Of a stretch of 64,000 nucleotides of DNA, positions 15,302 through 40,307 are shown in pieces (the stretch's first letter is position 1; every line of letters begins with the position of its first letter). Origin of the DNA: an uncultured cyanobacterium (GTDB lineage: Bacteria > Cyanobacteriota > Cyanobacteriia > Cyanobacteriales > CAWUOF01); NCBI GenBank assembly GCA_963744145.1, contig CAVUSO010000001.1, forward strand, positions 3,680,001 to 3,744,000, read 5' to 3'. The notes under the pieces were generated by a model. That model was not told the DNA's origin. It searched no databases and worked only from the letters and a program-made list of their open reading frames with translations. A program made the position numbers and the translations under genes.

Positions 15302-15643
15302 ATGATACTGAAAGAATTAGAGCATCAACTGCTAGCCTTATCTGATCATGAAAAAGCTCAAGTTGTACAACTTCTATCTCAAGGCAAAATCACTCTCGGA
15401 CGTGGTATCGAAAAAACGCCTGGTATTTGTGGCGGTAGTGCCTGTATTGCGGGAACTCGCAGTACCGTTTGGGGGTTGGTAGAAGCTCGTCAGATTGGAT
15501 ATAGCGAAGCTGATTTACTCATTAGCTATCCATCTCTATCTGCAACTGATTTGGCAAATGCTTGGGCTTATGCTGAAGCTTTTTCCCAGGAAATTGAAAC
15601 AGAAATTCGGGAAAATGCCCAAGAGATGTACGAGGATTCATAG
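15302..15643 (+). CDS. DUF433-domain antitoxin
   Basis: Copy of 7257; toxin reduced to ~4 codons at 15647. Confidence 0.85.
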   Translation: MILKELEHQLLALSDHEKAQVVQLLSQGKITLGRGIEKTPGICGGSACIAGTRSTVWGLVEARQIGYSEADLLISYPSLSATDLANAWAYAEAFSQEIETEIRENAQEMYEDS

Positions 15644-20200: not shown

Positions 20201-21002
20201 TGTCTCTACTATCGGGATTATTAAATCCGACCCGAAACGGAATAAAACCGCTCCAAAACCATTAGTAGTATTTGCTGATCCGGTATTTACTCCCAATGAT
20301 GAACGCTTTGCTAAAACTGTTGCTCCTCAAGCTAGTCATAATATCAGCGATCGCGGTTTACCAATCGAGGCACAACAATTAGAAAAAGCCGCATTAACAG
20401 AAGGAATTAAATGGAAAAGATTACCTTTTACCAGAGATGAAGCTGATGGGATTGTGAGAATCATCCCCAATAGTCAACCTCAAGAATTATTAGATTTTCG
20501 TGCTAATCGTCAAGCACTTAATAGTAATTCTCATCTTAATCAATACCAAATTATTCATTTAGCCACCCACGGTTTTGTTGATACCGAACATCCAGAATTC
20601 TCTGGAATCCTTTTATCTTTATTAGATCAAGAAGGAAACTATGAAAACGGTTACTTAACATTAAATGATATATTTAATCTGGACTTACAAGCAAATTTAG
20701 TAGTATTAAGTGCCTGTCAAACTGGAGTAGGAAAATTAATTAAAGGAGAGGGATTAGTAGGATTAACTAGGGGGTTTATGTATGCTGGTACTCCGCGAGT
20801 GTTAGTATCGTTATGGAGCATTAATGATCAATCTACATCGGAGTTAATGGTGAAATTTTATCAGAAGACGCTGAAGGAAAAGTTAACACCCGTAGCAGCA
20901 TTAAGAGCAGCTCAATTAGAAATGTGGCAACAAGGAGATTGGAAGAAATGGAAATCACCCTATTACTGGGCTGCTTTTACTATGCAAGGTGATTGGAATT
21001 AA
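17280..21002 (+). CDS. TPR-CHAT protease; 14 TPR units + capping unit
   Basis: 120-bp repeats 17580-19260; HLATHG / LSACQTG. Confidence 0.92.
17580..19260 (+). repeat. 14 tandem 120-bp TPR-coding repeats
   Basis: 18181-18420 identical to 18421-18660; 18901-19020 identical to 19021-19140. Confidence 0.95.
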
Positions 21003-22091: not shown

Positions 22092-25000
22092 ATGATTACT
22101 AAGATAATTAAAAAATTTAGGGTAAGATTTTATAGGGCAAATTTAATTTTTTCCTTTTGGTTATGGGTTTATATCGGGATAAGTTTATTATTGGTTGATA
22201 GACCTATTATAAAAGTGGCGATCGCACAGGAACCAGAAAAAGTAATTGCGGATCGTTTATACAAGGAAGCAGAAGAAACCTATAAAAAACAAACTAGAGA
22301 ATCCCAAAAAGAAGCTCTGGAAAAGTTTAATGAAGCCAAAGAAATTTATCATCGGTTGGGTGAGGGTAAAAGTGAAGCTACTATTACTAAAAATATTGGT
22401 AATATTTATTCATATTTAGGGGAAAAACAAAAGGCTTTAGATTATTATAATTTATCTTTAAGTCTGGCTCGTAGGATAGGGGATAAATCTCTTGAATCGA
22501 TTAATCTTAATAATATTGGTTTGGTTTATAAGTATTGGGGAGAAAGACAGAAGGGACTAGAATATTTTCATCAGTCTTTGGTAATTAATCAAGCTATTGC
22601 CGATCGCCTTGGTGAAGCGATCAGTTTTAATAATATTGGGTTGATTTATTCCGCTTTAGGAGAAAAGAAAAAAGCCCTGGAATACTATAATCTATCTTTG
22701 CCCCTCTATCGGACTGTGGGCGATCGCGAGGGTGAGTCTAATTTGTTTAGTGACATTGGGACGGTTTATGCGGATTTGGGAGAGCAACAGAAAGCTTTAG
22801 ATTATTATCATCAGTCTTTGTTTTTGAAACAGACCATTCACGATTTTAGGGGTGAAGCTAATACTCTCAATAATATTGCTAATACTTACTATTCTTTAGG
22901 TAATCAAAAAAAGGCTTTAGATTATTATCAGCGGTCTTTAACTCTCAAACGTACCGTTGGCGATCTCCCCGGTCAAACTACTACTTTGAATGGTATTGGG
23001 TTAGTTTATTTAGATTTGGGAGAACAAGAAAAAGCTTTAGATTACTTTCACCAATCTTTAGACATTTCTGTGCAAATAGGCGATCGCCCTAGACAATCTT
23101 CTGCTCTGATTAGTATTGGTAGTGTCTATAGTAATTTGGGGGAAAGTCAAAAAGCTTTGGAATATTATAATCAAGCTTTACCGATTAAACGTGCTGTTAG
23201 CGATCGCTCAGGTGAAGCTAATACTTTGATTGGGATTGGTAATGTTTATAAAGATTTAGGTAAGAATCAGGAAGCGTTATTATATTATAATCAGGCTTTA
23301 GTTCTTAAACAAGCTGTTAGCGATCCTAATGGTGAAGCTAATACTCTGATTGGAATTGGTAACGTTTATAATAAATTAGGAGAACAGAAAACTGCTTTAG
23401 CGTATTATAATCGGGCTTTACCTCTGAAACGAATTGTATCCGATCCGCAAGGTGAGGCTAAAATTCTGAATAATCTGGGATTTGTCTATGCGGATTTAGG
23501 AGAAATACAGAAAGCTTTAAATTATTACAATCAGTCCCTAGTTATTGCCCGTGCTGGAGGAGATTATTTTGATGAAGCTAATACTCTTTTAAATTTGTCT
23601 ATTTTAAAGGAAAAGGAAGGGAATCTTCAAGAAAGTTTATCTGATATTGAAAGTGCTTTAAAAATTATTGAGAATCTTCGCACTAAAATTATTAGTCAAG
23701 ACCTCCGGATTTCTTATTTTGCTACAGTGCAAGACTATTATAAATTTTATATTAATTTATTGATGAAGTTACATAAACAAAAACCAAATCAGGGTTTTAA
23801 TATTAAAGCTTTGGAAGTTAGCGATCGCTCTCGTGCCCGATCTTTAATTGAATTACTAGCAGAATCTAAGGCTAAGATCCATACAGGAATAGATCCGAAA
23901 TTATTAGAGGAAGAACAAAATATTCAAGCTCAGATAGATAACTTTGAGAAAAATAGTCAAGAAATTCTAATTAATCATCATACTCCTGAAAAAGAAGCAG
24001 AATTAAAACAACAAGAAATAAATCTTATTCAGGAATATAATAGGATTCGTAATAAGATTCGGATCACTAGTCCTCGTTATGCTGATTTAAAATATCATCA
24101 ACCGCTGATGTTATCAGAAATTCAACAATATTTGGATGATCAGACAATTTCATTGCAATATTCTTTAGATACAGAGGTTAGTTATCTTTGGTTAGTGACT
24201 AAAACAGAAGTTAATAGTTATGAGTTACCGAAACAAAAAGATATAGAAAAATTGGCTGAAAATTTTAGAAATGTATTAACTATAGCTAGTCAAAGAGATT
24301 TATTAAAATTGGTGATGAATAATAGTAATGCTCTCAGTAATGTAATTCTTAAACCAGTTGCAGAAAAATTAGGTAAAAAGCGTTTATTAATTGTTCCAGA
24401 TGGAGCATTGCAATATATTCCTTTTAGTGCTTTAACTGTACCAGGAAAACCTTTTCTTCCTTTGATAGCTGAACATGAAATAATTATGTCCCCATCCGTA
24501 TCTACTATAGGGATGATTAGGAAGTATAGCAATAAAAGTATTGCTACTCAGCAGTTAGCTATTTTTGCTGATCCGGTTTTTAGTGTTGATGATGAGCGTT
24601 TTGGGAAAGCTATAGTTAGTAAAAATTATGATTCTCGCGATCGCAGTCTGTCAAGGGAAACAAAAGGATTAGAAATAGCATCATTATTATTAGGAATTAA
24701 ATGGGGGAGATTACCTTTTACTAGAAAAGAAGCGAATGGGATAATAACTTTAACTTCTAGAGAGCAGAGTCAAGAGTATTTAGATTTTGATGTTAATCGT
24801 GATGCAGTAAATAATCCTAATTTGAATCAATACCAAATTATTCACTTTGCCACTCATGGATTTATTGATACAGAACATCCTGAGTTATCAGCAATTATTT
24901 TATCTTTAGTGGATCAAAAAAAGAATTATCAAAATGGTTATTTAAGATTAAATGATATATTTAACTTAAATTTGAATGCCAAATTAATAGTTTTAAGTGC

Positions 25001-25280
25001 TTGCGAAACGGGATTAGGAAAGGAGATTAAGGGGGAAGGGATAGTGGGATTAACAAGGGGTTTTATCTATGCTGGTGCTCAACAAGTATTAGTATCTTTA
25101 TGGAGTATAAATGACAAATCAACTGCGGAATTCATGGTAAACTTTTACAGGAAAATACTGAAAGATAAGTTAACTGTATCCGCAGCATTAAGGGCAGCCC
25201 AATTAGAGATGTGGCAAGAGGGCAAATGGAAATCACCCTACTACTGGGCTACTTTTACGATACAAGGTGACTGGAATTAA
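22092..25280 (+). CDS. TPR-CHAT protease, divergent paralog; 10 TPR units + capping unit
   Basis: HFATHG / LSACETG; hydrophobic N-terminal segment. Confidence 0.92.
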
Positions 25281-26262: not shown

Positions 26263-26505
26263 TGAACTATAAATAGGCGATCGCGGAGCTGATAATTGGT
26301 GGTACGATCGCTTTTGCTCAAAGTTGTGCTAAATCTTAATGAATTTTGGGTTGAGGGAGTAAATCTAAACGATCTGAGAATGGCGAGTGATCGCTGATGA
26401 TTGGTGACGTGATCGCTTTTAGTCAAAGTTGTGCTAAATATCAATGAATGTTGGGTTGAGAGAGTAAGCCACCAGCATCTTAACCATGTGCCAAGTTTCT
26501 TCTAC

Positions 26506-27633
26506 TTACATAATTGCTAGAACAAATTCACCCTCGTTGACAGACTGGTTAATCGAAACATGAAAAACCAATCCGGACCTGTCAGAATAAACATCTTTAA
26601 CATTAGGAAATTCTTTTAATTTATCAAAACTCAAAACCTGGTAGAGAAGATCCCCCTGCTGAACCGAAGTACCAAGTCCTACTCTAGATTGAACCATACC
26701 ACCTACAGGTGACCAGTATTTTTTGACTTGGCTTAAGGGTCTGAAACTCATGTTGAGTTCCATGAATTTTTCTGGGGGCAGACTTTCTATATTGATAATA
26801 CCTTTTTGAACCAAGTAGTTCTTAACTCCACAAACTCCCTTAGAAACTGAATTTGGATTCATTGCCATTCCAGTACCTAGTTCTAGCGTGTATGCCTCTA
26901 CATCAAATTTGATTTGTTTCCCTAATTTAGATAGGGTATTCTCTAGTGCTAGCCAAGGCTTCATAAACGCTTCGTCAAAAGCATCCCCATCATAATCATC
27001 AAACATAATCCCATGTTCGAGCAAGAATAACTTTGCACTTTCTTCGCGATCGCGGAAGTAATACAAATATTCCAACCCATAATTAGTATTACTGTGCAAA
27101 TCAATCAAGTAGTCAGCGTCTAAACAGAGAGATTGCACCTTGTATCGATATTTATCGGTTAGTTGTACGCTACTAGGGGCATCAATTTTGGCTTGAATTT
27201 GCTCAAAGCTAGTTTTAATTTTCTGTTTATAGTTCTGCTTAATGATATCTGGCTCAACATTAATTTGAGACTGAGCAAATTCTTCTAAATCCTGACAAAC
27301 TTTTTCATAGTCCCAGTAGATTCGATTCCAATCCTTGCCATCATAGGTATTGAATCGTCCTGTTGCAAACTGATGGGAACGCTGGTTTGTCGCTAATGGA
27401 TTACAAACTGGAACCAGCCAAATTTCTCCCGTTAAGACTTCTGGTTCAAGAGTCATCAAAAACTCAATTAATTGATGAATTACAGCATTACCTACAATTT
27501 CATTGCCATGTAAGTTAGCTTGGAGGTAAGCTTTCTTACCCGGTTTAGCACCAAAGAACTTATAGACTTTGATCGATAGATAATCGCCGGAGGCAAGTTG
27601 TAGGAGGGTAATAGTTTCAATGGTTGGAATCAT
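26506..27633 (-). CDS. Succinylglutamate desuccinylase/aspartoacylase (M14 AstE/AspA-like) protein
   Basis: HGNE, NR, DLHS, TLELG zinc/catalytic motifs. Confidence 0.85.
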   Translation of the reverse strand: MIPTIETITLLQLASGDYLSIKVYKFFGAKPGKKAYLQANLHGNEIVGNAVIHQLIEFLMTLEPEVLTGEIWLVPVCNPLATNQRSHQFATGRFNTYDGKDWNRIYWDYEKVCQDLEEFAQSQINVEPDIIKQNYKQKIKTSFEQIQAKIDAPSSVQLTDKYRYKVQSLCLDADYLIDLHSNTNYGLEYLYYFRDREESAKLFLLEHGIMFDDYDGDAFDEAFMKPWLALENTLSKLGKQIKFDVEAYTLELGTGMAMNPNSVSKGVCGVKNYLVQKGIINIESLPPEKFMELNMSFRPLSQVKKYWSPVGGMVQSRVGLGTSVQQGDLLYQVLSFDKLKEFPNVKDVYSDRSGLVFHVSINQSVNEGEFVLAIM

Positions 27634-27696
27634 GTCAATTTTAGTTGGGTTGGGTATGAAATTTAGGTTAGCTCAGAGCGTAATTTACTGAACAAG

Positions 27697-28479
27697 TTAA
27701 CGTTTTTGCTTTGCAATTACTTGAGAGCTAAAACGTATCCACTTTCGACAATGAGGACGAAAATTATAGAACACATCATTTTGTCCAATTGATTTCCATA
27801 GGTTATCCGGAAAGAGGATATTTAGATTGCTTATCCATCGATCTTTGTCTGGTGTATAAATTTCATTAAAGTCCATTGGACTCGCAAAAATTAGATAACC
27901 ATTAGGAGATAGTAAGTCATATAAAGTCTCAATGAGTGTTTTAGGACTCGGATGACGATCTGCAACATTAAGACACGTAATCAAATCAAAATAGTTCGCA
28001 GGTCGCGGAACGCTTTCTGCAAATGCCTCATATATGTAAAGTTCTTTTAATTTAATAGGATTAGGGCGACTTAAAGCTTTTCCATAAGAAGGCTTTTCAC
28101 AGTTAGTAACAATAGGAAAATAGCCTAGTTCTTCTGAGTCAATTAGCAATTTTTTAGCCCACTTACAAAACTTTGAAGATGGTTCCACTAAAACCAACTC
28201 AGTTAAACTAGGGAATAAATTGTATATTTCATATACAGTACGCCCAGTTGAGCCACCAACATCGAGATATTTTGACGGAACATAACTCTTTGGCAACCAT
28301 TCTTGTGCTAGTTCACCAATCTGTCGATAGAAATTTGGATAAATACGATCAGTTTTAGGATTAAGTAGTTTTTCATGGGAATCAGGTAGCACAGTACCCA
28401 ACAAGAAGTCTGACCACTCTACTTCGAGATATGTAGCTAGTTGCCATTCTGTGGTGTAGTCTTTTTTATTGTCTGTCAT
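27697..28479 (-). CDS. Class I SAM methyltransferase resembling the OvoA C-terminal / METTL9-type histidine N-methyltransferase domain
   Basis: YLDVGGSTGR; FDLITCLNVADRHPSP..L..NGYLIFASP. Confidence 0.7.
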   Translation of the reverse strand: MTDNKKDYTTEWQLATYLEVEWSDFLLGTVLPDSHEKLLNPKTDRIYPNFYRQIGELAQEWLPKSYVPSKYLDVGGSTGRTVYEIYNLFPSLTELVLVEPSSKFCKWAKKLLIDSEELGYFPIVTNCEKPSYGKALSRPNPIKLKELYIYEAFAESVPRPANYFDLITCLNVADRHPSPKTLIETLYDLLSPNGYLIFASPMDFNEIYTPDKDRWISNLNILFPDNLWKSIGQNDVFYNFRPHCRKWIRFSSQVIAKQKR

Positions 28480-28842
28480 TGCGATAATTTATCCTTATTT
28501 ATAATTCTGAACATGAAAATTCGCCGATCTTTTTTGACGCTGCCATCCTGACGCATATGAGAGACATTTACAGCTTTACCTTCCACGACATGAAATCCAA
28601 GATTCTGGTAAAGTGATTGTGCTACAAGGTTCTCCTCTTTTGTATTCAAAAGTATATTTATAGCAGCAGAGCCTAAAGTATCTAGGCAAGTTTTGACTAG
28701 GTGCTTTGCTAAACCCGTTGTCACTGAAGTATTCTTGATATGGAGGCTCAGAAAATACACTTTGGTAGAGTTGTATTAATCCACATTTAAATGCTTTTGG
28801 CAACTCTTCTGATTTAGTTAATCGAATTACTGTATAGTTCAT
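28476..28842 (-). pseudogene. GNAT acetyltransferase, internally deleted/frameshifted
   Basis: LYQSVFSEPPYQEYFS in one frame, then GLAKHLV..N..AQSLYQNLGF in another; core motif A missing. Confidence 0.7.
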
Positions 28843-28898
28843 GTTCAATCCTATAGCGAGCTATATGGTTATTTTTCAGAGCGTTCTTTATTTGGAGC

Positions 28899-30914
28899 CT
28901 AATAAAGAGATTGTGAGCCAGATGGATTATCAATCAAGTTCCAAGGTTTCAAGTATCGGGTAAAAAACTGAACTGACTCCTTCCAATATTGTAACTCTGC
29001 TGGTTTACTGAAAGAATGACCCTCTTCGGGAATGATTTTGAGAGTAACTGATTTTCTCCAAGTATGAGAACTGAAAATCTTCTCTAACTCGTAAGCTTGA
29101 TCAATAGGAGTATCAACATCATTTTCCCCCTGAAATAGAAGCACGGGAGTTCTTACTATTTCTGGACTAAATTTATGGATAGGCGATCGCTCCTTTGCTC
29201 TTTCTACAAGTTCATTTACATAGCCACCCACTAAACGATGGTCATAATAACGAACTTCGGTTTGAGTCTGCTGAATCTCCCAGTCACTTATGAACCCTGA
29301 TCCACACGCACAGACAAAAGGATGTTGTGGTGCGGTAATTGTTTGCAGGACAAGATATCCACCCCAGCTATACCCCCAAACACCTAACAGAGAAGCGTTT
29401 ACATGAGGATGATTCGCAAATATGTCAGCAGTCCGAAGAACATCATCACGATCAGCGATTCCTAAATTTTCTGCTAGTCCTGCTGACATATGAACAACAC
29501 CTTGACCATTGCTTCCTCGATAATTTACGGAGGCAACAGCAAATCCCTGTTTTACTAGAAGCTCTATCGAAATGAAATTAGAGTAACGACTTAAGTTGGT
29601 TATTGGTCCACCTTTAATCCAAACAATCCCAGGAAACCCTCCTATAGGTGGTTCAGTATCGGGCAGATAAATTTGCACGTAAGGATGTTGCCCGTCTTTA
29701 GTTGAGAACTCTGTCAACTCTAGTTGTACTTTCCCTCGACGGTGACTACAAACAGCTACCTCAGTTCTGCTTTGTTGAGTACCTACTTTCAAAAGAATAG
29801 GAGGCTGAAAAGCTTTTTGCTCATAAAAGTAAATTTCAGATCCGATTCTAGCAGCAATAGTTTCTACAGCATTCTGTGCTTCTGTGATTGCCTTCTTGTT
29901 TCCAGTGCGATCACAAAGCCAAATTGTCTCTCTTCCCAAACCCACTTCACTTGTAGTCAATAACCACCCATCAGGTTGTACCAGTAATTGACCATCATCG
30001 AAATTTCCCGAACAAATTGTTTGAGTAGAACTATATACAAGCTGTCCAACTTTTAGTGCAAAACGATGCCATTTAGCAAAACCAGTGTTGTTACAACGGA
30101 CTAATAATGGCAAATCACTATCATGTTTGTCCCAAGTAACACAGATACCTGCATAAATACCATCAGGATCTAAAGGAGTGTTACTAGGTGAGTTAATGTA
30201 AAGTGGCGCTTCATTTATTATGTAAACTTCTGAGTATTGCCCCCAATTAATGCCAACGGCAACAGTTTCTGCTGATATATCAAGGGCAGTAAAACTTTGA
30301 ACTCGCCCATTTTTAACTCTACATCTTGTTTTAATGGTGCTTTTATCAATTGATACTTGTAAGAGAACTGAGTAACGTATCGGTTCAGCTAGGCAATCAT
30401 TCATTTTCGAGGTATCTTTATAAATGCTACGAAAAATTAATGATTTCCCATCATCAGTAAATAATAAATCGGGGGTATTTCGGTTAAGGTGAGTCTGTGT
30501 AAACTGATTGAAGCTACCTGTAGCAAAGTTGATTGATCCTTGAAATATCTGATCAAGCGAACCATCCATGTAATCAACTATCCAAAGTCCTGATTCAGCG
30601 TCTTGCGAACTATTGACGGCAAAAGCAATATATTGCCCGTCTGGTGACCAGATAGGCGCACTCAACTGATAGCTAGAACCTGAGTATCCAAAAAAATTCC
30701 CTGGAAGAATTGTTTCTGGTAAGCCGTCTGAGAAATTCAGCTTGTAAAGGTTTGTTACATCTCCAACTCGATGACAGGCTATCCAAACATTTTGTTGAGG
30801 AGAGAATGTGAAACCATACCATTCTTCTTCTACTAAGAGTGTGCTAAAAGAAAAGTAGTTAGGAAAAGCACTATTGTAGTTTTGATTAATTGAGTTTTTG
30901 TCTCTTAAGTTCAT
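28899..30914 (-). CDS. S9 prolyl-oligopeptidase/acylaminoacyl peptidase family protein
   Basis: GGP, NYRGS, GYSWGG (Ser), QGEND (Asp), EGHSF (His); N-terminal propeller-like region. Confidence 0.85.
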   Translation of the reverse strand: MNLRDKNSINQNYNSAFPNYFSFSTLLVEEEWYGFTFSPQQNVWIACHRVGDVTNLYKLNFSDGLPETILPGNFFGYSGSSYQLSAPIWSPDGQYIAFAVNSSQDAESGLWIVDYMDGSLDQIFQGSINFATGSFNQFTQTHLNRNTPDLLFTDDGKSLIFRSIYKDTSKMNDCLAEPIRYSVLLQVSIDKSTIKTRCRVKNGRVQSFTALDISAETVAVGINWGQYSEVYIINEAPLYINSPSNTPLDPDGIYAGICVTWDKHDSDLPLLVRCNNTGFAKWHRFALKVGQLVYSSTQTICSGNFDDGQLLVQPDGWLLTTSEVGLGRETIWLCDRTGNKKAITEAQNAVETIAARIGSEIYFYEQKAFQPPILLKVGTQQSRTEVAVCSHRRGKVQLELTEFSTKDGQHPYVQIYLPDTEPPIGGFPGIVWIKGGPITNLSRYSNFISIELLVKQGFAVASVNYRGSNGQGVVHMSAGLAENLGIADRDDVLRTADIFANHPHVNASLLGVWGYSWGGYLVLQTITAPQHPFVCACGSGFISDWEIQQTQTEVRYYDHRLVGGYVNELVERAKERSPIHKFSPEIVRTPVLLFQGENDVDTPIDQAYELEKIFSSHTWRKSVTLKIIPEEGHSFSKPAELQYWKESVQFFTRYLKPWNLIDNPSGSQSLY

Positions 30915-31020
30915 AGCAGTTGTCTAAGAGCAAGATATAGGATTGCGTTGAGCTAAAACAATAACAAAATCTCCTTCGGTTCGTTTAAAGTACACCGTGA
31001 ACGCTTACGTTTTCATTAGC

Positions 31021-31983
31021 TTAAACTACCGCTAAATAACAAATACTGAAATAATTATTATTATCACTCCAAGCTTTTGCTAGCTTAAATCCGCACTCTT
31101 CAGACAAATTTCTTATTTCCTCCATATTAAACTTGTAAGAATTTTCTGTATGAATACTTTCACCCTCTATAAATTTGAATTTTTGACCTGCTACAGTAAC
31201 AATCTGATCTTTTAAACTCACTAAGTGCATCTCAATTCTGCTCTCTTTCAAGTTAAAAAAAGCATAGTGATTAAAACTATTTAGGTTAAAATCCGCTTCT
31301 AATTCTCTGTTCATCCGACCCAGCAGGTTCAAGTTAAATGCGGCAGTAACACCTTTAGCATCATTATACGCAGCATGAAGAATTTGAGGATCTTTCTTCA
31401 TATCAACTCCAATAAACATTCCTCCACCTAAGCCCACAATATTTGCTGATTGTTTCAAAAGCTTTACTGCTTCAATGTATTCTAAATTAGCTATTGTAGT
31501 GCCTGGAAAAAAAATAACTCTTTTCTTAACTGTTTTCTGATCGTATTCAGGTAAGACAAGTTGAGCCGTATAATCAGCACAAACCGCTATAACATCTAGC
31601 TCTGGATAGGTTTCTGCAATTCTATTAGAAGCAGTAATCATATGCTGTTTTGAAATATCAATTGGCATATATGTTAAAGGCTTTTTTATTTTATCCAGAA
31701 AAATACAGATTTTTTGACTGCTGCCACTACCATACTCTATCAGTAAACAAGATTCTCCTATTAAATCTGCGATTTCTAAACAATGATTCCTCAACAGCTC
31801 GGATTCAATTCTAGTAGGGTAATATTCCTCTACTTCACATATCTGATCAAAAATCTTAGACCCATTATCATCATAGAAAAATTTTGGAGGAATTTTTTTC
31901 TGCTTCATACTCAGTCCTGTTAAAACTTCTTCATGGAAGTTGCTAACATTGGGATTCAGGTCATAAAATTTTAAATTTTGCAT
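31021..31983 (-). CDS. egtD: L-histidine Nalpha-methyltransferase (EgtD/EasF family); ORF could extend to 32052
   Basis: KKIPPKFFYD..GS..F, EYYPTR.E, EYGSGSS, AYND..GVTAAFNLN, RIEMHL, IHTENSYKF. Confidence 0.88.
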   Translation of the reverse strand: MQNLKFYDLNPNVSNFHEEVLTGLSMKQKKIPPKFFYDDNGSKIFDQICEVEEYYPTRIESELLRNHCLEIADLIGESCLLIEYGSGSSQKICIFLDKIKKPLTYMPIDISKQHMITASNRIAETYPELDVIAVCADYTAQLVLPEYDQKTVKKRVIFFPGTTIANLEYIEAVKLLKQSANIVGLGGGMFIGVDMKKDPQILHAAYNDAKGVTAAFNLNLLGRMNRELEADFNLNSFNHYAFFNLKESRIEMHLVSLKDQIVTVAGQKFKFIEGESIHTENSYKFNMEEIRNLSEECGFKLAKAWSDNNNYFSICYLAVV

Positions 31984-32099
31984 ACGGTTTGCCTCCAATT
32001 GGTTCAAATAGAGAATAGAGATTGGTAAACATTTATCTACACCCAAATTCATAAAATGAACAGGGTAAGTCTTTGTGCATATATGCTACTAACAATGTC

Positions 32100-33452
32100 T
32101 TACAAGACTTCGTTTTCCAAGAAAATCTGTAATTTTTGAATTAGCTCATTGATCTCAACCCTTTGTTGCTCTCCATCTGCCATCCTTCTGATCAGAGCTA
32201 CATTATTTTCAAATTCTTCCTGCCCAATAATGACAACAAAAGGGATTCCTTTCTTGTTTGCATATTTCATTTGTACTGCAAGCTTTTTGTCTTCTAGATA
32301 TACTTCAGTATTGATTCCAGCCTTCCGAAGAAGTCCACCTATTCTCAAATATTCTTGTTGTCTATCTTTTTCTAGAGACATTACTAGCACAGACGTTACA
32401 GTAGGTTTTGATGGTTTGATTACTCCCATTTCAAACAACTTTGGCAGTAATCTTGTAAGACCAATAGAAATTCCTACACCTGGGTATTTCTTCCCAGCAA
32501 AATTGCTTGCTAAGTCCTCATATCTTCCTCCGCTACATATACTACCAATCCCAGCATGACCAGTAAGGCGTGTTTCATATATTGTTCCAGTGTAGTAATC
32601 CAATCCTCGTACCATAGACAAGTCAACACCATAGTAATCAGAAGGAACACCCAACATATCTATTCCTTTCAGAACTGTGGTAAGTTCATCTAACCCAGTT
32701 GCAAATTCTCCTTCTATATTTAGTGAACTGAGATAGTTTATCAATTCATCACTAGATGCTTTTTTTGAGAAAAATTCTAATATTGAATCGATCGCATGAT
32801 TGGTTAAATTTGCTTGACTTAACTGTTCTCTAACCTGAGAAACTCCTATTTTATCTATAGCATCTACAATCCCAATCACATTCTGTATTTCTTCTTGCTC
32901 AACCCCAGAATTTACAAGAAACCCTTGGAGAATCTTCCTGTTGTTTATCCTGATGTAAAAATGCCCAATGTTGAGTTCTTTGAATATCTGATAAATGACA
33001 AACGGCATTTCTGCATCGTTGAGTAAAGATAGCTCACCCTCTCCAATGACATCAATATCACATTGATAAAACTGTCTGTAACGACCTGACTGAGCGCGTT
33101 CACCACGCCATACTGGTTGAATCTGGTAACGACGAAATGGAAATGCCAAATCATTAGAGTGTTGTGCTACATATCGGGCTAGAGGCACAGTGAGGTCAAA
33201 ATGCAAGGCTAAATCTTTTCCATCATCTCCTTCTTCAGCCCGCAGTCTTCTTAAACCGTAGACTTCCTTACTAATGTTTCCTTTCGCAGTCGATAACGTC
33301 TCTATGCGTTCAACGGCTGGAGTTTCAATTGGTACAGCACCAGACCTCTCAAATCCTTTTCGGATTATGTCAATAACTCGATTGAACGTGATTTGTTCTC
33401 CTGGCAAAAATTCGGGAAAACCAGAAATAGGTTGAACATTAAATCCAGACAT
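32100..33452 (-). CDS. hisS: Histidyl-tRNA synthetase, full length with anticodon-binding domain
   Basis: FDLTVPLARY, WRGER..GRYRQFYQCD, RGLDYYTG, GGRY, KYANKKGIP. Confidence 0.92.
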   Translation of the reverse strand: MSGFNVQPISGFPEFLPGEQITFNRVIDIIRKGFERSGAVPIETPAVERIETLSTAKGNISKEVYGLRRLRAEEGDDGKDLALHFDLTVPLARYVAQHSNDLAFPFRRYQIQPVWRGERAQSGRYRQFYQCDIDVIGEGELSLLNDAEMPFVIYQIFKELNIGHFYIRINNRKILQGFLVNSGVEQEEIQNVIGIVDAIDKIGVSQVREQLSQANLTNHAIDSILEFFSKKASSDELINYLSSLNIEGEFATGLDELTTVLKGIDMLGVPSDYYGVDLSMVRGLDYYTGTIYETRLTGHAGIGSICSGGRYEDLASNFAGKKYPGVGISIGLTRLLPKLFEMGVIKPSKPTVTSVLVMSLEKDRQQEYLRIGGLLRKAGINTEVYLEDKKLAVQMKYANKKGIPFVVIIGQEEFENNVALIRRMADGEQQRVEINELIQKLQIFLENEVL

Positions 33453-33482
33453 TTAAAACTCTCTTTTGATTAAGTTATGTAA

Positions 33483-34196
33483 TTACATTCTTGGGTCAAA
33501 GTAGTCTTCTAAACCCAATTTTTCCACCAAGAATTGGGCAGCTTCCTGACCCGTGTATATTCTGTTCATTGGCATACATACATTTCTGATACGCGGTTTT
33601 GCCCACAAGTGTGGTAGCTGGTCTGCTACACCACCAGTTCCGTATATAGCTACGACATATTTAGGTGTGTCGTTATTTTTAATTAGTGATTCATTTATTT
33701 TTTGAATGTGAGCGCATTCTGTTAGTGTGCCTGCACTCCCACCAATAACTATCATTCCATCAATCAAAGACGTCCAAGTAGCACCTTCATCGCCCCATCG
33801 TGATTCTCCAATCATAGGATGTACACAAATTGATAAATCAAGCAGCGAGGAATCGAGAGCATACTTTCTGCCCTTCCTAGGAAATACTCCAATAGTTTTG
33901 AAACCATATTCCTTTGCTTTTTTAGTCGCTAATTCTGGAATACCGCCCTCGGTTCCGCCTGTTAAAATTGCTATTCTATAGCCTCGAAAAAGTTTTAGGG
34001 CATCGGATATCAATCTGTCATGCAATGTATTTCGGAATGCGATATACTTTAACTGCAAATCATCATCATCTGGAATTCCCTGCAATTTATCATCAGCACC
34101 GCCAGAAAATCCAATAACTTTGTGAATACCCTGCTCTTTCATAAACGAGGTAACTTTCGATGCGTAGTCCTCCTTACCAATAATGTCAATCAACAT
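33483..34196 (-). CDS. SLOG (Smf/DprA-LOG) superfamily nucleotide-binding protein
   Basis: LTGGTEGG..A...A...G.KTIGVFP and IGGSAGTLTE (GGxGTxxE-like). Confidence 0.7.
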   Translation of the reverse strand: MLIDIIGKEDYASKVTSFMKEQGIHKVIGFSGGADDKLQGIPDDDDLQLKYIAFRNTLHDRLISDALKLFRGYRIAILTGGTEGGIPELATKKAKEYGFKTIGVFPRKGRKYALDSSLLDLSICVHPMIGESRWGDEGATWTSLIDGMIVIGGSAGTLTECAHIQKINESLIKNNDTPKYVVAIYGTGGVADQLPHLWAKPRIRNVCMPMNRIYTGQEAAQFLVEKLGLEDYFDPRM

Positions 34197-34410
34197 TGTG
34201 AATCCTCATATAAAAAAAACATCACAACACTGGAGCAACATAAATTCAAGAGCAGATAGATGATTTTGACATTGTGTTTTCACTGATATAAAAACCATAA
34301 ACGACTTTATTGTCTTCCTATTATTCCTTAGAAATCGAAGGTTTGTATAGTCTCAAAAGGTATTATTTTGCCGACAAATTTCTTCTGCTTTTACTTTCTA
34401 TTAATCTAGT

Positions 34411-34472
34411 TTTGTACGAAAATGTACGAGAATGTAATAAAAAGTCCAAAAATGTGATGTATAATGTGCGAA
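34411..34472 (+). promoter_or_regulatory. Phased 10-bp direct repeats overlapping a TATAAT -10 box
   Basis: tttgtacgaa/aatgtacgag/aatgtaataa/aaagtccaaa/aatgtgatgt; TATAAT 34460-34465. Confidence 0.5.
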
Positions 34473-34494
34473 ATGCTCCTATATCCTAGCACCG

Positions 34495-35889
34495 ATGAAT
34501 CTTAAAGAAATGTTAAAATTTGCTGATGAGATAGTATTTGCCAAAACGGGTCAGCACCTTGACGATTTACAAGCAGCGGTACTGCGAGGTACTCTGCAAC
34601 GAGAGACATATAAGGAAATAGCTAAGGATTTTGATTGTTCAGAAAGTCGTGTTAGAGAAGTAGGATCAGAATTATGGCAGATACTTTCAGAAGAGTTAAG
34701 AGAAGAGGTCAGTAAATCAAATTTTAGATCGGCTATGGAGAGAGTGCAATTTTCCATATATTCAAATATTGCACAAGAAGAATCGGTGCAAATTATTTGT
34801 GGTGAAAGTAGACACCTAGCAGATATATCAAAGTCACATCCATATAATGAGGAAACATCTAACACAAAACAACCTCAAAATCTACATCAAGATTTAAGCG
34901 TAATGCCAGATTTGGGTGCTTTTTACGATCGCACTCCCGAACTCGAAACTCTCAAAACCTGGATTTTACAACAAAGCTGTCGCCTCATCTTACTCACAGG
35001 TGTGAGTGGTATCGGCAAAACCTCATTAGCGGTACAACTCGTTCAACAAATAAAAAATGAGTTTGAATATGTAATTTGGTGTAGTCTAGACGCATCCCCC
35101 ACCTTAACTGAATTTCAAGATCAACTGATCCAATTTTTCTCCCAATCAGAAAAGCTAGATTCATCTGCAAGTAACCAAAAAACCTTACCGCTAATTAAGT
35201 ATTTGCAAAAACATCGCTGTTTAGTAATTTTAGATGATATTCACAACCTTTTCAGTAGCGGTGAATTAGCAGGTAAATATCAACCAGGATCTGAAGAATA
35301 TCGTTCTTTTTTCAAACAGATAGAAAAATTATCTCATCAAAGTTGCTTTCTGTTAATCGGTTGGGAGCAACTGAGAGAAGTTACTCAAGTCAAAAATCAA
35401 AATATCCCTATTCAGACTTTACAGCTCACTGGTTTAGACATCACAGCGGGACAGGAAATACTAAAAGATTACGGGTTAGCAGAAATCGATGACTACTCAA
35501 TACTCATTCACCGCTACCAAGGTAATCCGTTATACTTAAAAAGTATCGCGACTCTGATTCAAGAATTGGGAGGATGCGGGACTGAGTTATTACCCGATGA
35601 TCCCATATTGTTACCAGAAGATTTGAAAGATGTTTTGCAGCAGCAGTGCGATCGCTTATCCGAATTAGAAAAACAAGTTCTCTCTTTATTAGCTCAAGAA
35701 CATGAACCAGTTAATCTGGCAAAATTACTAGAAAATGCTAGAATCCCATCGTCAGATTTACTAACCGCATTGCAATCTTTATTGCGACGTTCCTTAATCG
35801 AAAAATCAACAAATCTTTATACTCTTCCACCTGTGCTGATGCAGTATATAAAATTATTATCACCTCACATTAGTTCTCCAAATAGTTAA
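34495..35889 (+). CDS. N-terminal HTH + NB-ARC (STAND) ATPase without C-terminal repeats
   Basis: LDDLQ..VL....TYKEIA HTH; GVSGIGKT Walker A; LVILDD; GNPL. Confidence 0.85.
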   Translation: MNLKEMLKFADEIVFAKTGQHLDDLQAAVLRGTLQRETYKEIAKDFDCSESRVREVGSELWQILSEELREEVSKSNFRSAMERVQFSIYSNIAQEESVQIICGESRHLADISKSHPYNEETSNTKQPQNLHQDLSVMPDLGAFYDRTPELETLKTWILQQSCRLILLTGVSGIGKTSLAVQLVQQIKNEFEYVIWCSLDASPTLTEFQDQLIQFFSQSEKLDSSASNQKTLPLIKYLQKHRCLVILDDIHNLFSSGELAGKYQPGSEEYRSFFKQIEKLSHQSCFLLIGWEQLREVTQVKNQNIPIQTLQLTGLDITAGQEILKDYGLAEIDDYSILIHRYQGNPLYLKSIATLIQELGGCGTELLPDDPILLPEDLKDVLQQQCDRLSELEKQVLSLLAQEHEPVNLAKLLENARIPSSDLLTALQSLLRRSLIEKSTNLYTLPPVLMQYIKLLSPHISSPNS

Positions 35890-36520: not shown

Positions 36521-36940
36521 ATGTCTGCTAAAGATATATTTCACAATATAGTCCGATCAGCTTTGGAGAAGGATGGATGGATAATTACCCATGATCCACT
36601 GTTTTTACAACCTAGTCAGGAAGTTAGAATGAAGGTAGATTTGGCAGCACAGAAGTTATTATCGGCACAAAAGGGGAATCAAAAAATTGCTGTAGAGGTC
36701 AAGAGTTTTATTGGTCTATCAGCAATCTCTGAATTTCATATAGCCGTTGGTCAATTTCTGAATTATCAGGTAGCCTTAGATAAATTAGACCTAGAATGGA
36801 TACTGTATTTAGCTATACCCACGGATATTTATCAAGATTTTTTTACAGATTCATTTGTGCAAGAGGTGGTTAAACGATTTCAAATTAAGTTGCTGGTTTT
36901 TCATATTCAGAAACAGGAGATAGTGCTATGGATAGATTAG
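36521..36940 (+). CDS. xisH: XisH-family protein
   Basis: MSAKDIFH..ALEKDGW.ITHDP, VEVKSF. Confidence 0.9.
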   Translation: MSAKDIFHNIVRSALEKDGWIITHDPLFLQPSQEVRMKVDLAAQKLLSAQKGNQKIAVEVKSFIGLSAISEFHIAVGQFLNYQVALDKLDLEWILYLAIPTDIYQDFFTDSFVQEVVKRFQIKLLVFHIQKQEIVLWID

Positions 36941-37260
36941 ATTATCGCGAATTGGTAAAAAAAATTATCCAACAACACGCCAACGAGCGATCGAAGGAAG
37001 ACCCGAATCAATCTCAGATTGTTTTTGATGAGGAACGCGATCGCTATTTATTGCTATATGTTGGATGGCGAGATGAAGAACGACTACATGGATGTCCAAT
37101 TCATATCGATATTCAAGATGGAAAAATTTGGATTCAGCGAGATTTTACAGAGGAAGGAATTGCTTATCAATTGACAGAGATGGGCGTACCCAAAACCGAT
37201 ATAATTTTAGGATTTCGTTCACCTTATATTCGACAATTCACTGAATTTGCTGTAAAATAA
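36928..37260 (+). CDS. xisI: XisI-family protein
   Basis: GKIWIQRDFTEEGIA. Confidence 0.9.
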   Translation: MDRLDYRELVKKIIQQHANERSKEDPNQSQIVFDEERDRYLLLYVGWRDEERLHGCPIHIDIQDGKIWIQRDFTEEGIAYQLTEMGVPKTDIILGFRSPYIRQFTEFAVK

Positions 37261-37433: not shown

Positions 37434-37775
37434 ATGACACTAAAAGAATTAGAGCCTCAACTGCTAGCACTATCTGATCATGAAAAAGCTCAAGTTGTAC
37501 AACTTCTATCTCAAGGCAAAATCACTCTCGGACGTGGGATTGAAAAAAAGCCTGGTGTTTGTGGTGGTAGTGCCTGTATTGTGGGAACTCGCAGTATCGT
37601 TTGGGGGTTGGTAGAAGCTCGTCAGATTGGATATAGCGAAGCTGATTTACTCATTAGCTATCCATCTCTATCTGCAACTGATCTGGCAAATGCTTGGGCT
37701 TATGCTGAAGCTTTTCCCCAGGAAATTGAAACAGAAATTCGGGAAAATACTCAAGAGATGTACGAGGATTCATAA
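37434..37775 (+). CDS. DUF433-domain antitoxin
   Basis: PGVCGGSACI.GTR. Confidence 0.85.
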   Translation: MTLKELEPQLLALSDHEKAQVVQLLSQGKITLGRGIEKKPGVCGGSACIVGTRSIVWGLVEARQIGYSEADLLISYPSLSATDLANAWAYAEAFPQEIETEIRENTQEMYEDS

Positions 37776-37952: not shown

Positions 37953-38303
37953 TTAAATTAGGCGATCGCATGATGTTAATACCAATATGCTTTCTGTTTC
38001 CCGATGCCAAAATTCAATTATTGTGTTAAAATGATCTCTCAATATCTGCACAATCTTGAAGGTTGGACTATTGCCAATCCGGAGATAGATAAATTTGGGC
38101 GGATGACCATAAAGCAAACTACGTTGATGAAAATCAGCATCTTTGGAAACAATCATAAAATCATTCAACTTTGCATATTCCCAAATAATTGAATCATCGG
38201 TATTTATTAGTGCCAAAGTTTTGACATGAGCCGAATCAGGATATAAATCGATGATCCGATGAATGATCCTGTCTGACAAGTTTTCGTCCAGTAGTAGTTT
38301 CAC
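37953..38303 (-). CDS. DUF5615 PIN-like toxin, intact
   Basis: KLLLDENLS, D..IWEYA, IVSKDADF, HPPK.I.LR.GN. Confidence 0.85.
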   Translation of the reverse strand: MKLLLDENLSDRIIHRIIDLYPDSAHVKTLALINTDDSIIWEYAKLNDFMIVSKDADFHQRSLLYGHPPKFIYLRIGNSPTFKIVQILRDHFNTIIEFWHRETESILVLTSCDRLI

Positions 38304-38524
38304 CAAGATGCTACGAATAATTTTTTCTCTCGTTCAGCAGCAAAGGTAAGACAGGCTTTGATGTCTTCCGAAGTAAGTTCCGAAAAATCTTCGAGAATTT
38401 CTGCCTCAGTCATCCCACCAGCTAGATAATCTAGGATATCGTACACAGTAATTCGCATTCCTCGAATACAAGGCTTACCGCTACGTTTTCCTGGTTCAAT
38501 TGTGATAATTTCATGGTGTTTCAT
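38300..38524 (-). CDS. DUF433 antitoxin
   Basis: PGKRSGKPCIRGMRITVYDIL. Confidence 0.9.
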   Translation of the reverse strand: MKHHEIITIEPGKRSGKPCIRGMRITVYDILDYLAGGMTEAEILEDFSELTSEDIKACLTFAAEREKKLFVASW

Positions 38525-40124: not shown

Positions 40125-40307
40125 GCATTAGAGCTGGCTAGATCCCAAATCCTAACCCAAGCAAACTTTTGAGATTTTTCCGGACTTGGTGGCAACCGAA
40201 TGGGAGAAAGACTTAATAACATTATTTGCTGACCCATTGCTGACATGAAACTGTGCTACAGTGGGCGTAAATCGCTTTCAGTCTTTCTTCTCCGGCTCAG
40301 CAGACTT

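Follow-up and report, generated by a model that had tools for sequence, protein, structure and literature searches.

A protein of the SLOG/LOG fold is paired with a complete histidyl-tRNA synthetase (HisRS), together with histidine-modifying enzymes, in many bacterial phyla; a description of this combination was not found in the literature searched. In the window, the whole 64-kb stretch of cyanobacterial DNA that was analysed, the pair heads an operon carried on acquired DNA. One way to understand the arrangement is as an undescribed pathway to a histidine derivative with HisRS as a direct participant; this is offered tentatively, as a possibility rather than a probability.

The operon and its divergent neighbor

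ORF calling finds seven minus-strand genes at 26506-34196, co-oriented and tightly spaced: the intergenic intervals, in operon order, are 30, 47, 106 and 50 bp, an overlap, and 63 bp. These genes and the features around them are:

33483-34196, minus strand: SLOG/LOG-fold protein, 237 aa, first operon gene (PF18306, 33.5 bits; cutoff 26.3)
32100-33452, minus strand: HisRS, complete class II, 450 aa (TIGR00442, 392 bits; cutoff 286.75; HGTP_anticodon domain)
31021-32052, minus strand: EgtD, L-histidine N-alpha-methyltransferase, 343 aa (TIGR03438, 385 bits; cutoff 290.9)
28899-30914, minus strand: S9 serine peptidase, acyl-peptide-hydrolase type, 671 aa (Peptidase_S9, 102 bits; PD40)
28476-28848, minus strand: GNAT acetyltransferase pseudogene (two frames; deletion junction 28716-28720)
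27697-28479, minus strand: OvoM/OvsM-like class I methyltransferase, 260 aa (weak ovoA_Cterm match, 51 bits; cutoff 170)
26506-27633, minus strand: AstE/AspA-family zinc deacylase, 375 aa (PF24827 above cutoff; AstE_AspA_cat, 57 bits)
34197-34494, no strand: divergent intergenic region (promoter-like site and 10-bp repeat; consensus matches only)
34495-35889, plus strand: HTH and NB-ARC STAND protein, 464 aa, divergent (Pfam NB-ARC; weak Sigma70_r4)
27054-35647, no strand: HIP1-poor tract marking the foreign island (HIP1 site list)

The initial annotation listed seven genes. Their order, strand, spacing and identities hold good, but the GNAT gene is a pseudogene, and the step it would carry out is dead in this window. 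What is left of it is spread over two frames that overlap (28848-28576 and 28760-28476). Against the intact orthologue of Oscillatoria sp. HE19RPO (locus L004; 206 aa), it has lost 253 bp at 28716-28720 and has 5 bp in their place, which leaves the gene 248 bp shorter and shifts the frame. Intact orthologues of 206-208 aa are present in L004 and L001.

L004 has a homologue of the STAND gene, likewise placed divergently (39% identity over 460 aa), and L001 has a remnant. In the window the gene falls within the HIP1-poor tract, and its product is probably the regulator of the operon. Between it and the operon lie a minus-strand promoter-like site (34349-34320, 9/12 consensus matches) and a 10-bp repeat (34413-34455, unit TGTACGAAAA, 4.3 copies). 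On the other side, DUF928 and TPR-CHAT genes are the closest left-hand neighbors of the operon.

A foreign and mosaic island

The 64 kb hold 111 sites of the HIP1 element, GCGATCGC, where shuffled sequence would give 0.28. Between 27054 and 35647 the sole site is at 29183, where about 15 would be expected at the mean density of the window (Poisson P ~5e-6); the longest gap, 6.46 kb from 29190 to 35648, far exceeds the second-longest (2.7 kb). The single site first counted at 27.1-35.6 kb is therefore confirmed, and the operon sits in the largest HIP1 gap of the window. About 11 cyanobacterial protein clusters are 76-94% identical to the HisRS, and the remaining matches (50-64%) come from other phyla. 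In a HisRS tree of the kind proposed at the outset, the window protein groups within a 14-row cyanobacterial clade; the lineage itself is non-cyanobacterial. DNA homology with L004 covers 26492-34202, and the flanks differ. The island, as suspected, was horizontally acquired: the HIP1 gap, the rarity of the HisRS lineage in cyanobacteria and the differing flanks all lead there. It is also a mosaic, in that the AstE-methyltransferase-GNAT-S9 part is 90-93% identical to L004 in DNA and the EgtD-HisRS-SLOG part 76-77%, so the two halves have had separate histories. The ‘TA arrays’ reported on both sides are present if taken as toxin-antitoxin-like modules (DUF433, PIN, DUF5615 and XisH/XisI genes); (TA)n runs of at least five units are absent from the window.

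The SLOG-HisRS pair

Sixteen loci (L001-L016) hold a true SLOG relative and five (L017-L021) a weak SLOG-like one. HisRS is directly downstream of SLOG in 16/16 of the former, and none of the latter gives a HisRS hit; the pair is found in cyanobacteria, Pseudomonadota, Actinomycetota, Thermodesulfobacteriota and several CPR phyla. At least five single proteins fuse the two (P0030, P0241, P0248, P0260 and P0263), and among the best 150 SLOG family representatives four reach 600 aa, every one of them such a fusion. P0163, P0173, P0189 and P0244 join GNAT to SLOG, and GNAT and methyltransferase form one 472-aa ORF in L004; together these make a chain of fusions running from HisRS through SLOG and GNAT to the methyltransferase.

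The co-occurrence that had been put forward as a check is borne out. All seven genes recur in L004, the only other genome with the full set, while L001-L003 share SLOG-HisRS-EgtD-GNAT. In L008, which is a Pseudomonadota MAG, SLOG-HisRS-GNAT-methyltransferase keeps the order seen here, flanked by integrase and AlpA genes. Only the cyanobacterial loci (L001-L004 of L001-L016) have EgtD after the pair. It is a cyanobacterial add-on; the conserved core is SLOG and HisRS, without EgtD. A dedicated GNAT and the ring-type methyltransferase are frequent companions across phyla, with full-length methyltransferase homologues beside the pair in L004 (as the GNAT fusion), L008 and L010. Still, a related methyltransferase is absent from 13/16 loci, and 8/16 have no GNAT within 6.5 kb, a count that scores L012 as GNAT-bearing for a sole GNAT 3 kb upstream on the opposite strand; these absences suggest that SLOG-HisRS can work alone.

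The AF2 model of the SLOG protein (pLDDT 93.9) matches TM1055, LOG, the Moco carrier protein, PpnN/YgdH and TRPM MHR domains in Foldseek; by sequence, its closest PDB relatives are the Moco carrier proteins, binders rather than enzymes. Invariant motifs in the family alignment (A1) are SGG, GGT..G.P, WGDE and G..GT..E..H. With LOG, TIGR00725, the Moco carrier protein and PpnN it shares the fold and glycine-rich nucleotide-binding motifs; unlike them it has its own WGDE motif, an extra N-terminal helix and the link to HisRS, and its GGxxGTxxE is one residue longer than the PGGxGTxxE of LOG. Of 1.84 billion representatives, 319 clusters match at E<=1e-3; the family is small, specific, separate and tied to HisRS.

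The HisRS is full length, as first stated: it passes TIGR00442 and carries the HGTP_anticodon domain. Residues of motif 2, HisA, HisB and motif 3 are invariant over 44 sequences (alignment A2), as are parts of the anticodon-binding domain, and the enzyme is predicted to be catalytically intact. HisZ was considered and set aside, the HisZ model giving 167 bits against a cutoff of 271.65.

The histidine-modifying enzymes

EgtD matches 4pim (E 1.4e-53) and keeps the residues for histidine binding that we take from the M. smegmatis structure. It is above its equivalog cutoff with a complete pocket, as in the ergothioneine pathway; that pathway has EgtB, whereas here EgtD is embedded in the SLOG-HisRS operon, and no EgtB, EgtC or OvoA domain was found in any ORF of at least 100 aa in the 64 kb, in line with the initial annotation. 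The substrate of EgtD is free histidine, not activated histidine.

The second methyltransferase is probably a histidine-ring N-methyltransferase. Its nearest solved relatives at profile level are the OvoA C-terminal domain (8khq, 8.7e-19), OvsM (9bxh, 1.3e-16) and OvoM (9bxl, 5.6e-13), ahead of generic methyltransferases (~1e-6); the histidine type first proposed for it is thereby supported, and with the EgtD pocket so is the view of an operon centered on histidine. These relatives are N-methyltransferases of 5-thio- or 5-seleno-histidine. Identity to them is low, and the ovoA_Cterm score is under its cutoff (51 against 170). Unlike ovothiol and ovoselenol systems, the operon has no OvoA or OvsA partner; the substrate is therefore probably another histidine derivative.

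The cyanobacterial GNATs match the SLOG-fused GNAT domains over their full length (E 1e-13 to 1e-19) and form one subfamily with them. The S9 peptidase has as best solved relatives acyl-peptide hydrolases and acylamino-acid-releasing enzymes, and the deacylase matches 3fmc (E 1.8e-41); among L001-L016 each has an orthologue only in L004, at 92% identity.

A possible histidine-derivative pathway and its competitors

In the pathway reading, HisRS would supply activated histidine, as His-AMP or His-tRNA(His); SLOG, seated on HisRS, would hold the nucleotide part; GNAT would act on the alpha-amine and the methyltransferase on the imidazole ring. A histidine with N-acyl and/or N-methyl groups might result, or else a histidyl-nucleotide. 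In cyanobacteria, EgtD would add the conversion of free histidine to hercynine, the S9 enzyme and the AstE/AspA deacylase could release or recycle N-acyl-histidine, and the divergently transcribed HTH-STAND protein would regulate the operon. With GNAT dead, only part of this could run in the window. There is precedent for such coupling: LysX (LysRS-MprF) and ErdS (AspRS-DUF2156) fuse a synthetase to an enzyme that uses its product, as described in the review PMC9437257. As there, a complete synthetase is repeatedly fused to or paired with its partner, an arrangement that suggests that the activated amino acid is passed on directly. In the present case the partner is a nucleotide-binding domain of the SLOG/LOG fold, in ErdS a DUF2156 transferase. 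Synteny, fusions, the GNAT subfamily, histidine specificity, the intact HisRS, the synthetase-fusion precedent and the small SLOG family count for the pathway. Against it count the free-histidine need of EgtD, the binder relatives of SLOG, the mosaic island, a possible role in translation, the loci in which the pair has neither companion nearby, and the lack of any identified core scaffold enzyme or product.

A second perspective, rather unlikely but the nearest competitor, confines HisRS to translation: a spare or insulated enzyme would keep tRNA(His) charged while the operon drains histidine through EgtD or makes methyl-histidine analogues that would starve or poison the host enzyme, and SLOG would serve HisRS of this lineage as an accessory or regulatory subunit. 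The motifs are intact and the protein is close to ordinary HisRS, being 51-53% identical to Rickettsiales HisRS (P0067, P0073), whose genomes, judged by an indirect proxy, have no SLOG match; in Kaiserbacteria the SLOG-HisRS pair lies near dnaK-dnaJ. These two observations make a plain translation role possible. About half of the loci have the pair without GNAT or methyltransferase, and the HisG copy in the Nocardia locus L010 suggests extra histidine supply. It also recalls HisZ-HisG, where a HisRS-family protein works with a nucleotide/PRPP enzyme; the HisRS here differs from HisZ, under whose cutoff it falls, in retaining catalytic motifs and the anticodon-binding domain. In Table 1 of PMC9437257, HisRS duplicates with canonical function are entered as ‘-’ and HisZ is the sole paralogue.

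A close parallel is known from Lactobacillus parabuchneri, whose mobile island for histidine decarboxylase carries an extra hisS and peptidases, with a second copy, hisS2, elsewhere on the chromosome; the authors of that work assume that the extra hisS secures histidine for protein synthesis (PMC5313534). Shared are the complete accessory HisRS, mobile DNA, a histidine-consuming enzyme and peptidases alongside. As described there, a T-box leader, hdcA/hdcB and an antiporter belong to the L. parabuchneri island, which lacks SLOG, GNAT and methyltransferases; a search here for a T-box, other riboswitch or Rfam family found none, which speaks against a spare HisRS, and the second hisS is documented for L. 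parabuchneri. Resistant synthetase copies (mupirocin IleRS2, albomycin SerRS, indolmycin TrpRS; PMC9437257) likewise travel with small-molecule enzymes on acquired DNA and favor the spare enzyme, but inhibitor-building enzymes are not recognised in this operon. A mere spare enzyme would leave the repeated SLOG-HisRS and GNAT-SLOG fusions unexplained.

It is distinctly improbable that the island serves to detoxify or resist a histidyl-adenylate mimic, or a histidine antimetabolite, that comes from outside. HisRS would then be an insensitive target copy; GNAT would acetylate the toxic amine and SLOG cleave or sequester the nucleotide part, while ring or amine would be blocked by the methyltransferase and EgtD, and peptidases would cut aminoacyl or peptide carriers. 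Microcin C immunity, with the GNAT MccE and the S66 peptidase MccF, is the analogy. The patchy, mobile-element-linked distribution (integrase and AlpA in L008, a recombinase in L015, IS66 in L003, HNH and DDE in L014) and the varying peptidases (S66 in L011; M15 in L010 and L015; S9 and M14-like in the window) are as such a role would have them. However, we know of no natural compound that targets HisRS, the GNAT has no specific match to solved immunity acetyltransferases and is decayed in the window and perhaps in L003, and EgtD requires free histidine.

Very unlikely, too, is that SLOG-HisRS is the sole functional unit and the other five genes are unrelated, packed by chance into a variable region. 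The region is crowded with accessory genes, S9 and AstE occur in 1/16 loci only, and the island halves diverge unequally from L004; yet GNAT and methyltransferase recur across phyla, fused mutually or to SLOG, EgtD follows HisRS in 4/4 other cyanobacterial loci, and all genes are co-oriented with gaps of at most 106 bp.

Least credible is a role in conflict, the STAND NTPase sensing an invader and SLOG-HisRS serving as effector or as back-up for attacked tRNA(His) charging: STAND/AAA proteins are indeed encoded upstream in the window as well as in L004 and L005 (large proteins in L007, L008 and L014), TPR-CHAT and toxin-antitoxin-like genes are neighbors, and Thoeris SLOG domains are reported to sense ADPR-type signals, but PADLOC models match no core protein, no SLOG was found in phage records, and the STAND proteins have an N-terminal HTH, as in MalT-type regulators.

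The operon

The initial annotation had described a tightly spaced, co-oriented run of genes, and the ORF map agrees: seven head-to-tail ORFs occupy the minus strand from 34196 to 26506, with gaps of at most 106 bp and one pair overlapping by ATGA. A STAND gene is its divergent neighbor.

Genes of the operon in order, and the divergent neighbor
minus strand, SLOG cluster-4 protein, first operon gene, 237 aa (Pfam)
minus strand, histidine-tRNA ligase (HisRS), full-length, 450 aa (Pfam, NCBIfam TIGR00442)
minus strand, EgtD (NCBIfam TIGR03438)
minus strand, S9 peptidase, 671 aa (Pfam)
minus strand, GNAT fragment (Pfam/NCBIfam scan)
minus strand, class I methyltransferase (weak ovoA_Cterm match)
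minus strand, AstE/AspA-family deacylase, 375 aa
34495-35889, plus strand, HTH + NB-ARC STAND gene, transcribed divergently from the operon

The order and identities of the seven genes hold as first read, except that the GNAT gene is broken: its N-terminal and C-terminal portions are read in different frames. Where the intact orthologue of Oscillatoria sp. HE19RPO (locus L004) has 253 bp, the window has 5 bp (28716-28720); the deletion removes the central strands of the fold and shifts the frame. The GNAT is dead in this window. In the PDB search it gave weak generic matches only.

A GNAT frame change is also seen near codon 55 in Oscillatoriales SM2_2_1 (L003, about 3463), where an IS66 transposase comes after the gene; this may be a second decayed copy or an assembly error in the MAG.

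Between the SLOG and STAND genes, the 10-bp unit TGTACGAAAA is repeated (4.3 copies at 34413-34455), and could be a candidate operator for the HTH-STAND protein. Promoter and terminator scans gave fewer matches than in shuffled sequence and nothing decisive. Neither an Rfam family nor a tRNA gene was found in the window, which therefore holds no T-box and no linked tRNA(His).

A SLOG-HisRS core shared across phyla

The conserved core of the system is SLOG plus HisRS, and it extends across phyla. A profile search of genome contigs with the SLOG family alignment (A1) returned 21 loci, of which 16 carry true SLOG relatives (39-86% identity) and five carry weak ones (L017-L021). Conserved co-occurrence, raised as a question by the initial annotation, is found for this pair: a HisRS gene starts 20-80 bp downstream of SLOG in 16/16 of the true-relative loci, and 0/5 of the weak ones have a HisRS at all. 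The 16 comprise three cyanobacteria, one contig labeled Saccharibacteria, Pseudohongiella, a Pseudomonadota MAG, Desulfobulbaceae, Nocardia, Bradyrhizobium, Moranbacteria, two Kaiserbacteria, Peribacteria, Gracilibacteria, Saccharibacteria and another Patescibacteria genome; the pair is present in at least eight phyla. Many SLOG family matches lie on contigs of the same length as those of HisRS matches, which serves as a proxy for a shared contig, and the two proteins also occur as one, with SLOG fused at the N terminus of HisRS (database protein clusters P0030, P0241, P0248, P0260 and P0263). Among the best 150 SLOG family representatives, all four proteins of at least 600 aa are such fusions.

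Several of these loci have features of their own. The contig labeled Candidatus Saccharibacteria (L002, 3.7 kb) carries SLOG-HisRS-EgtD-GNAT, its SLOG and HisRS having 84-86% protein identity to the cyanobacterial copies, so that the contig has probably been assigned to the wrong bin. In both Kaiserbacteria loci the pair lies close to dnaK-dnaJ. In one of them (L009, 12305-16757) HisRS is followed by a second, shorter SLOG (PF18306, 99 bits), a PRTase-like unknown, a 506-aa unknown and a ThiF-family protein.

The SLOG family is small: a word-indexed search gave 167 matches, and of 1.84 billion representatives 319 clusters reach E<=1e-3 and 83 reach E<=1e-30. The window member matches PF18306 (LDcluster4) at 33.5 bits, against a gathering threshold of 26.3. 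Its structure model is confident (pLDDT 93.9), and Foldseek matches it at probability 1.00 to 1rcu, 1ydh, 5its, 2iz5 and 6gfl; target-normalized TM-scores are about 0.63-0.76 for the first four, which are single-domain, and 0.33 for the larger 6gfl. It thus has the SLOG/LOG Rossmannoid fold, and its structural matches are TM1055, LOG, Moco carrier proteins, PpnN/YgdH and the MHR domains with which TRPM channels bind nucleotides; in sequence it comes closest, among solved proteins, to the Moco carriers. LOG phosphoribohydrolases hydrolyze nucleoside 5'-monophosphates and have the catalytic motif PGGxGTxxE. The invariant residues of the SLOG family, G153..G156 T157..E160 (GGxxGTxxE), form a motif one residue longer.

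HisRS had been called full-length and not HisZ, and both statements stand. TIGR00442 matches at 392.2 bits (cutoff 286.75) over model positions 1-405 of 406; identity as HisZ, the ATP-PRT regulatory subunit, was rejected, as that model scores 167.2 bits against a cutoff of 271.65 and an anticodon-binding domain is present (HGTP_anticodon, 65 bits, Pfam). Invariant in the HisRS family alignment (A2) are R116, G117, R119, R124, Q130, R282-Y287, G308-R310 and G325-R334, which belong to class II motifs 2 and 3, HisA (RGLDYY) and HisB (GGRY). Because these motifs and several anticodon-domain residues are invariant across the 44 aligned members, the window HisRS looks fully active.

Of 8000 scored relatives, the best 120 include only about 11 clusters (P0001-P0011, P0014) with 76-94% identity to the window HisRS; the names found among them are Oscillatoriales, Spirulina, Symploca, Oscillatoria, Microcoleus and Laspinema, the Microcoleus cluster being seen on only four contigs. 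Beyond these, among the same 120, identity falls to 64%, then to 50-57% for Patescibacteria, Pseudomonadota, Beggiatoaceae and Rickettsiales. The best solved relative, 3net, presumably the Nostoc PCC 7120 enzyme, scores 398.7 bits, under every one of the best 120 relatives listed. Judged by sequence, the window HisRS differs from the usual cyanobacterial enzyme. No second HisRS was found within the 64-kb window.

A FastTree phylogeny of 135 HisRS rows carries long-branch warnings for several CPR rows. Its SLOG-linked rows are the window, 15 rows from the loci and 31 from the database, the last assigned by the contig-length proxy, as the P0030 fusion or through identity with a locus row. They are scattered throughout the HisRS clade; the cyanobacterial copies group together in a single clade of 14 rows (support 99).

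In Bradyrhizobium mercantei (L014, 10693-13482) two tandem HisRS-like genes follow SLOG, with 42% and 33% identity to the window HisRS and a weak anticodon-domain match in both; HNH and DDE transposase genes are close by.

Histidine enzymes and recurrent companions

Three of the operon enzymes have histidine-specific ancestry. EgtD scores 385.2 bits against TIGR03438 (cutoff 290.9) and matches M. smegmatis EgtD (4pim) at E 1.4e-53; ten residues of the histidine pocket (Y39, F47, Y56, G161, N166, Y206, T213, M252, E282 and S284, M. smegmatis numbering) are all matched in the alignment with 4pim. As had been reported, it has no EgtB, EgtC or OvoA beside it: no such domain, and no FGE-sulfatase or DinB_2 domain, occurs in ORFs of at least 100 aa in the 64-kb window. 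An ordinary ergothioneine cluster was rejected, as EgtB is absent from the window; an ovothiol cluster would likewise need a sulfoxide synthase (EgtB or OvoA) along with the methyltransferase, and the window has none.

The second methyltransferase, used as a four-sequence profile (A3), matches the OvoA C-terminal domain at 8.7e-19, OvsM at 1.3e-16 and OvoM at 5.6e-13; the best generic methyltransferase is at 2.5e-6 (about 1e-6), and METTL9-type protein-histidine enzymes at about 2e-4. Against NCBIfam ovoA_Cterm it reaches 51.1 bits, under the equivalog cutoff of 170. On these profile scores it is a relative of OvoM, OvsM and the OvoA C-terminal domain, not an ovoA_Cterm equivalog, and most likely N-methylates the imidazole ring of a histidine derivative. 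The nearest solved relatives of the S9 enzyme are acyl-peptide hydrolases; those of the deacylase are structural-genomics AstE/AspA proteins.

Companions of the pair were surveyed in the 16 loci by Pfam scans of ORFs at most 6.5 kb away and by unbiased clustering. GNAT occurs in 8/16 loci: L001, L002 (where the contig stops within it), L003, L004, L006, L008, L015 and, as a weaker case 3 kb off on the opposite strand, L012. The window-type methyltransferase occurs in 3/16 (L004, L008, L010), EgtD in 4/16, all cyanobacterial-type, and S9 and AstE in 1/16 (L004). An M15 dipeptidase is present in 2/16 (L010, L015), an S66 peptidase in 1/16 (L011) and a weak PRTase-like protein in 2/16 (L009, L010), and two unnamed CPR families are each found in 3/16. 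At L008 the window order SLOG-HisRS-GNAT-methyltransferase recurs, flanked by a phage-type integrase and AlpA.

A chain of fusions joins HisRS, SLOG, GNAT and methyltransferase. GNAT is fused to SLOG in P0163, P0173, P0189 and P0244, and cyanobacterial GNATs match these fused domains over their full length (E 1e-13 to 1e-19); at L004, GNAT and methyltransferase form a single 472-aa ORF.

The Nocardia sp. NPDC057440 locus (L010, 4265-12102) is a run of eight same-strand genes: OvoM-like methyltransferase, M15 dipeptidase, HisG copy, PRTase-like unknown, inosine-uridine nucleoside hydrolase, HAD phosphatase, and finally SLOG with HisRS. The run has the look of nucleoside or histidine chemistry around the SLOG-HisRS core. 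In two proteobacterial loci, homologous proteins of ~1000 aa, with no Pfam family and only a weak MalT-TPR match, are encoded divergently upstream of SLOG (L008, 6615-9569; L014, 6491-9628). The same position is taken by an HTH + AAA_16 protein at L005 and a 1000-aa TPR protein at L007; the system may routinely include a large regulator of NTPase or TPR type.

An acquired, mosaic island

The operon island is acquired DNA. The depletion of HIP1 sites first noticed by eye is confirmed by count: the window has 111 copies of GCGATCGC, where shuffles predict 0.28, and a single copy lies in 27054-35647, where the window mean density would give about 15 (our own arithmetic). The longest gap in the window free of GCGATCGC, 6.46 kb, falls in the operon tract. 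DNA similarity to L004 begins at 26492 and ends at about 34202, and the flanks are unlike: L004 has an AdhE-type gene past its STAND gene, the window TPR-CHAT, DUF928 and XisH/XisI genes. Within the island, the AstE-methyltransferase-GNAT-S9 half has 90-93% DNA identity to L004, and the EgtD-HisRS-SLOG half 76-77% to L004 and to L001-L003. The island is thus itself a mosaic. Plasmid and phage collections gave no SLOG matches, and HisRS relatives on plasmids have at most 45% identity.

Between EgtD and S9, where the window has 106 bp, L004 has about 650 bp extra, with a family-less 260-aa ORF (L004, 12990-13772).

Perspectives on function

In one perspective, the operon proteins would all act on one molecule that combines a histidine with a nucleotide part and has its amine free, for which HisRS-activated histidine would be the simplest candidate. 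For this reason, and by analogy with LysX and ErdS, we lean toward a direct part for HisRS in the pathway, tentatively and with somewhat less than even confidence. LysX and ErdS are described in a 2022 review as aminoacyl-tRNA synthetases fused to the user of their product (PMC9437257); the likeness lies in the fusion to a partner, here in the SLOG-HisRS proteins.

A bolder form of the direct role, which we hold to be unlikely, would make SLOG-HisRS a new two-part enzyme, in some cases a single fused protein, in which a complete tRNA synthetase is joined to a LOG-fold domain and either transfers histidine to a mononucleotide-type acceptor or processes the two together. The product would be a histidyl-nucleotide metabolite, signal or antibiotic, tailored by GNAT, the ring methyltransferase, PRTase-like proteins and peptidases; no earlier small-molecule pathway would have HisRS as its basis, and this one would have spread by gene transfer, its hosts ranging from CPR bacteria through to cyanobacteria and actinomycetes.

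The main rival supposes that the operon HisRS is a spare or insensitive enzyme that shields translation; we regard this as possible but doubtful. It has a precedent in L. parabuchneri, whose histidine decarboxylase island carries an additional hisS (PMC5313534). Enzymes that would build a HisRS inhibitor, as expected for an aaRS conferring self-resistance in an antibiotic cluster, were not recognized in the window. In the 2022 review, Table 1 has no entry for a HisRS duplicate with canonical function, and full-length duplicated HisRS genes are given no function (PMC9437257).

The remaining explanations are less likely than either a direct role or a spare HisRS. A detoxification island is improbable, and a set of chance neighbors quite improbable. 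A defense system is very improbable, as SLOG, HisRS, EgtD, S9, AstE and GNAT match 0 PADLOC 2.0 families, the methyltransferase gives only a weak mad2 match there, and no core protein fits a system model.

Our search found no literature linking SLOG with HisRS, or EgtD with HisRS; the 2015 paper defining the SLOG families (Burroughs et al.), which lay outside it, may mention the neighborhood. That one HisRS lineage keeps company with a small nucleotide-binding protein, and has been fused to it more than once, points to an activity of this core translation enzyme that is still to be described. Depending on the reading, the outcome could be a new histidine-derived metabolite (methylated or acetylated histidine, or a histidyl-nucleotide), the first natural HisRS-directed antibiotic with its resistance pair, or a new accessory factor for tRNA(His) charging in CPR bacteria.

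Other features of the window

The first 38 kb of the window are dense with repeated small accessory modules, core genes (ispG/GcpE, LeuRS) appearing only after 38.9 kb. There are four DUF433 genes (324-650, 7257-7598, 15302-15643, 37434-37775), two XisH/XisI pairs with a lone XisI (10355-11097, 14796-15128, 36521-37260), and a PIN gene and a DUF5615 gene (1637-2083 and 37953-38306). The 'TA arrays' of the initial annotation, if taken as arrays of TA dinucleotides, are rejected: the window has none.

Three TPR-CHAT genes (11924-14554, 17280-21002, 22092-25280) carry HIP1 sites at exact 120-bp steps in their TPR arrays (12336-13084, 17388-19139, 23080-23207), for example at 17932, 18052 and 18172, then from 18652 through 19132; the spacing is one site per 40-residue TPR unit. 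A C-terminal processing protease is seemingly in two, a PDZ ORF (40245-40898) and a Peptidase_S41 ORF (40903-41604) with 4 bp between them; the split may reflect gene breakage or an error in the sequence.
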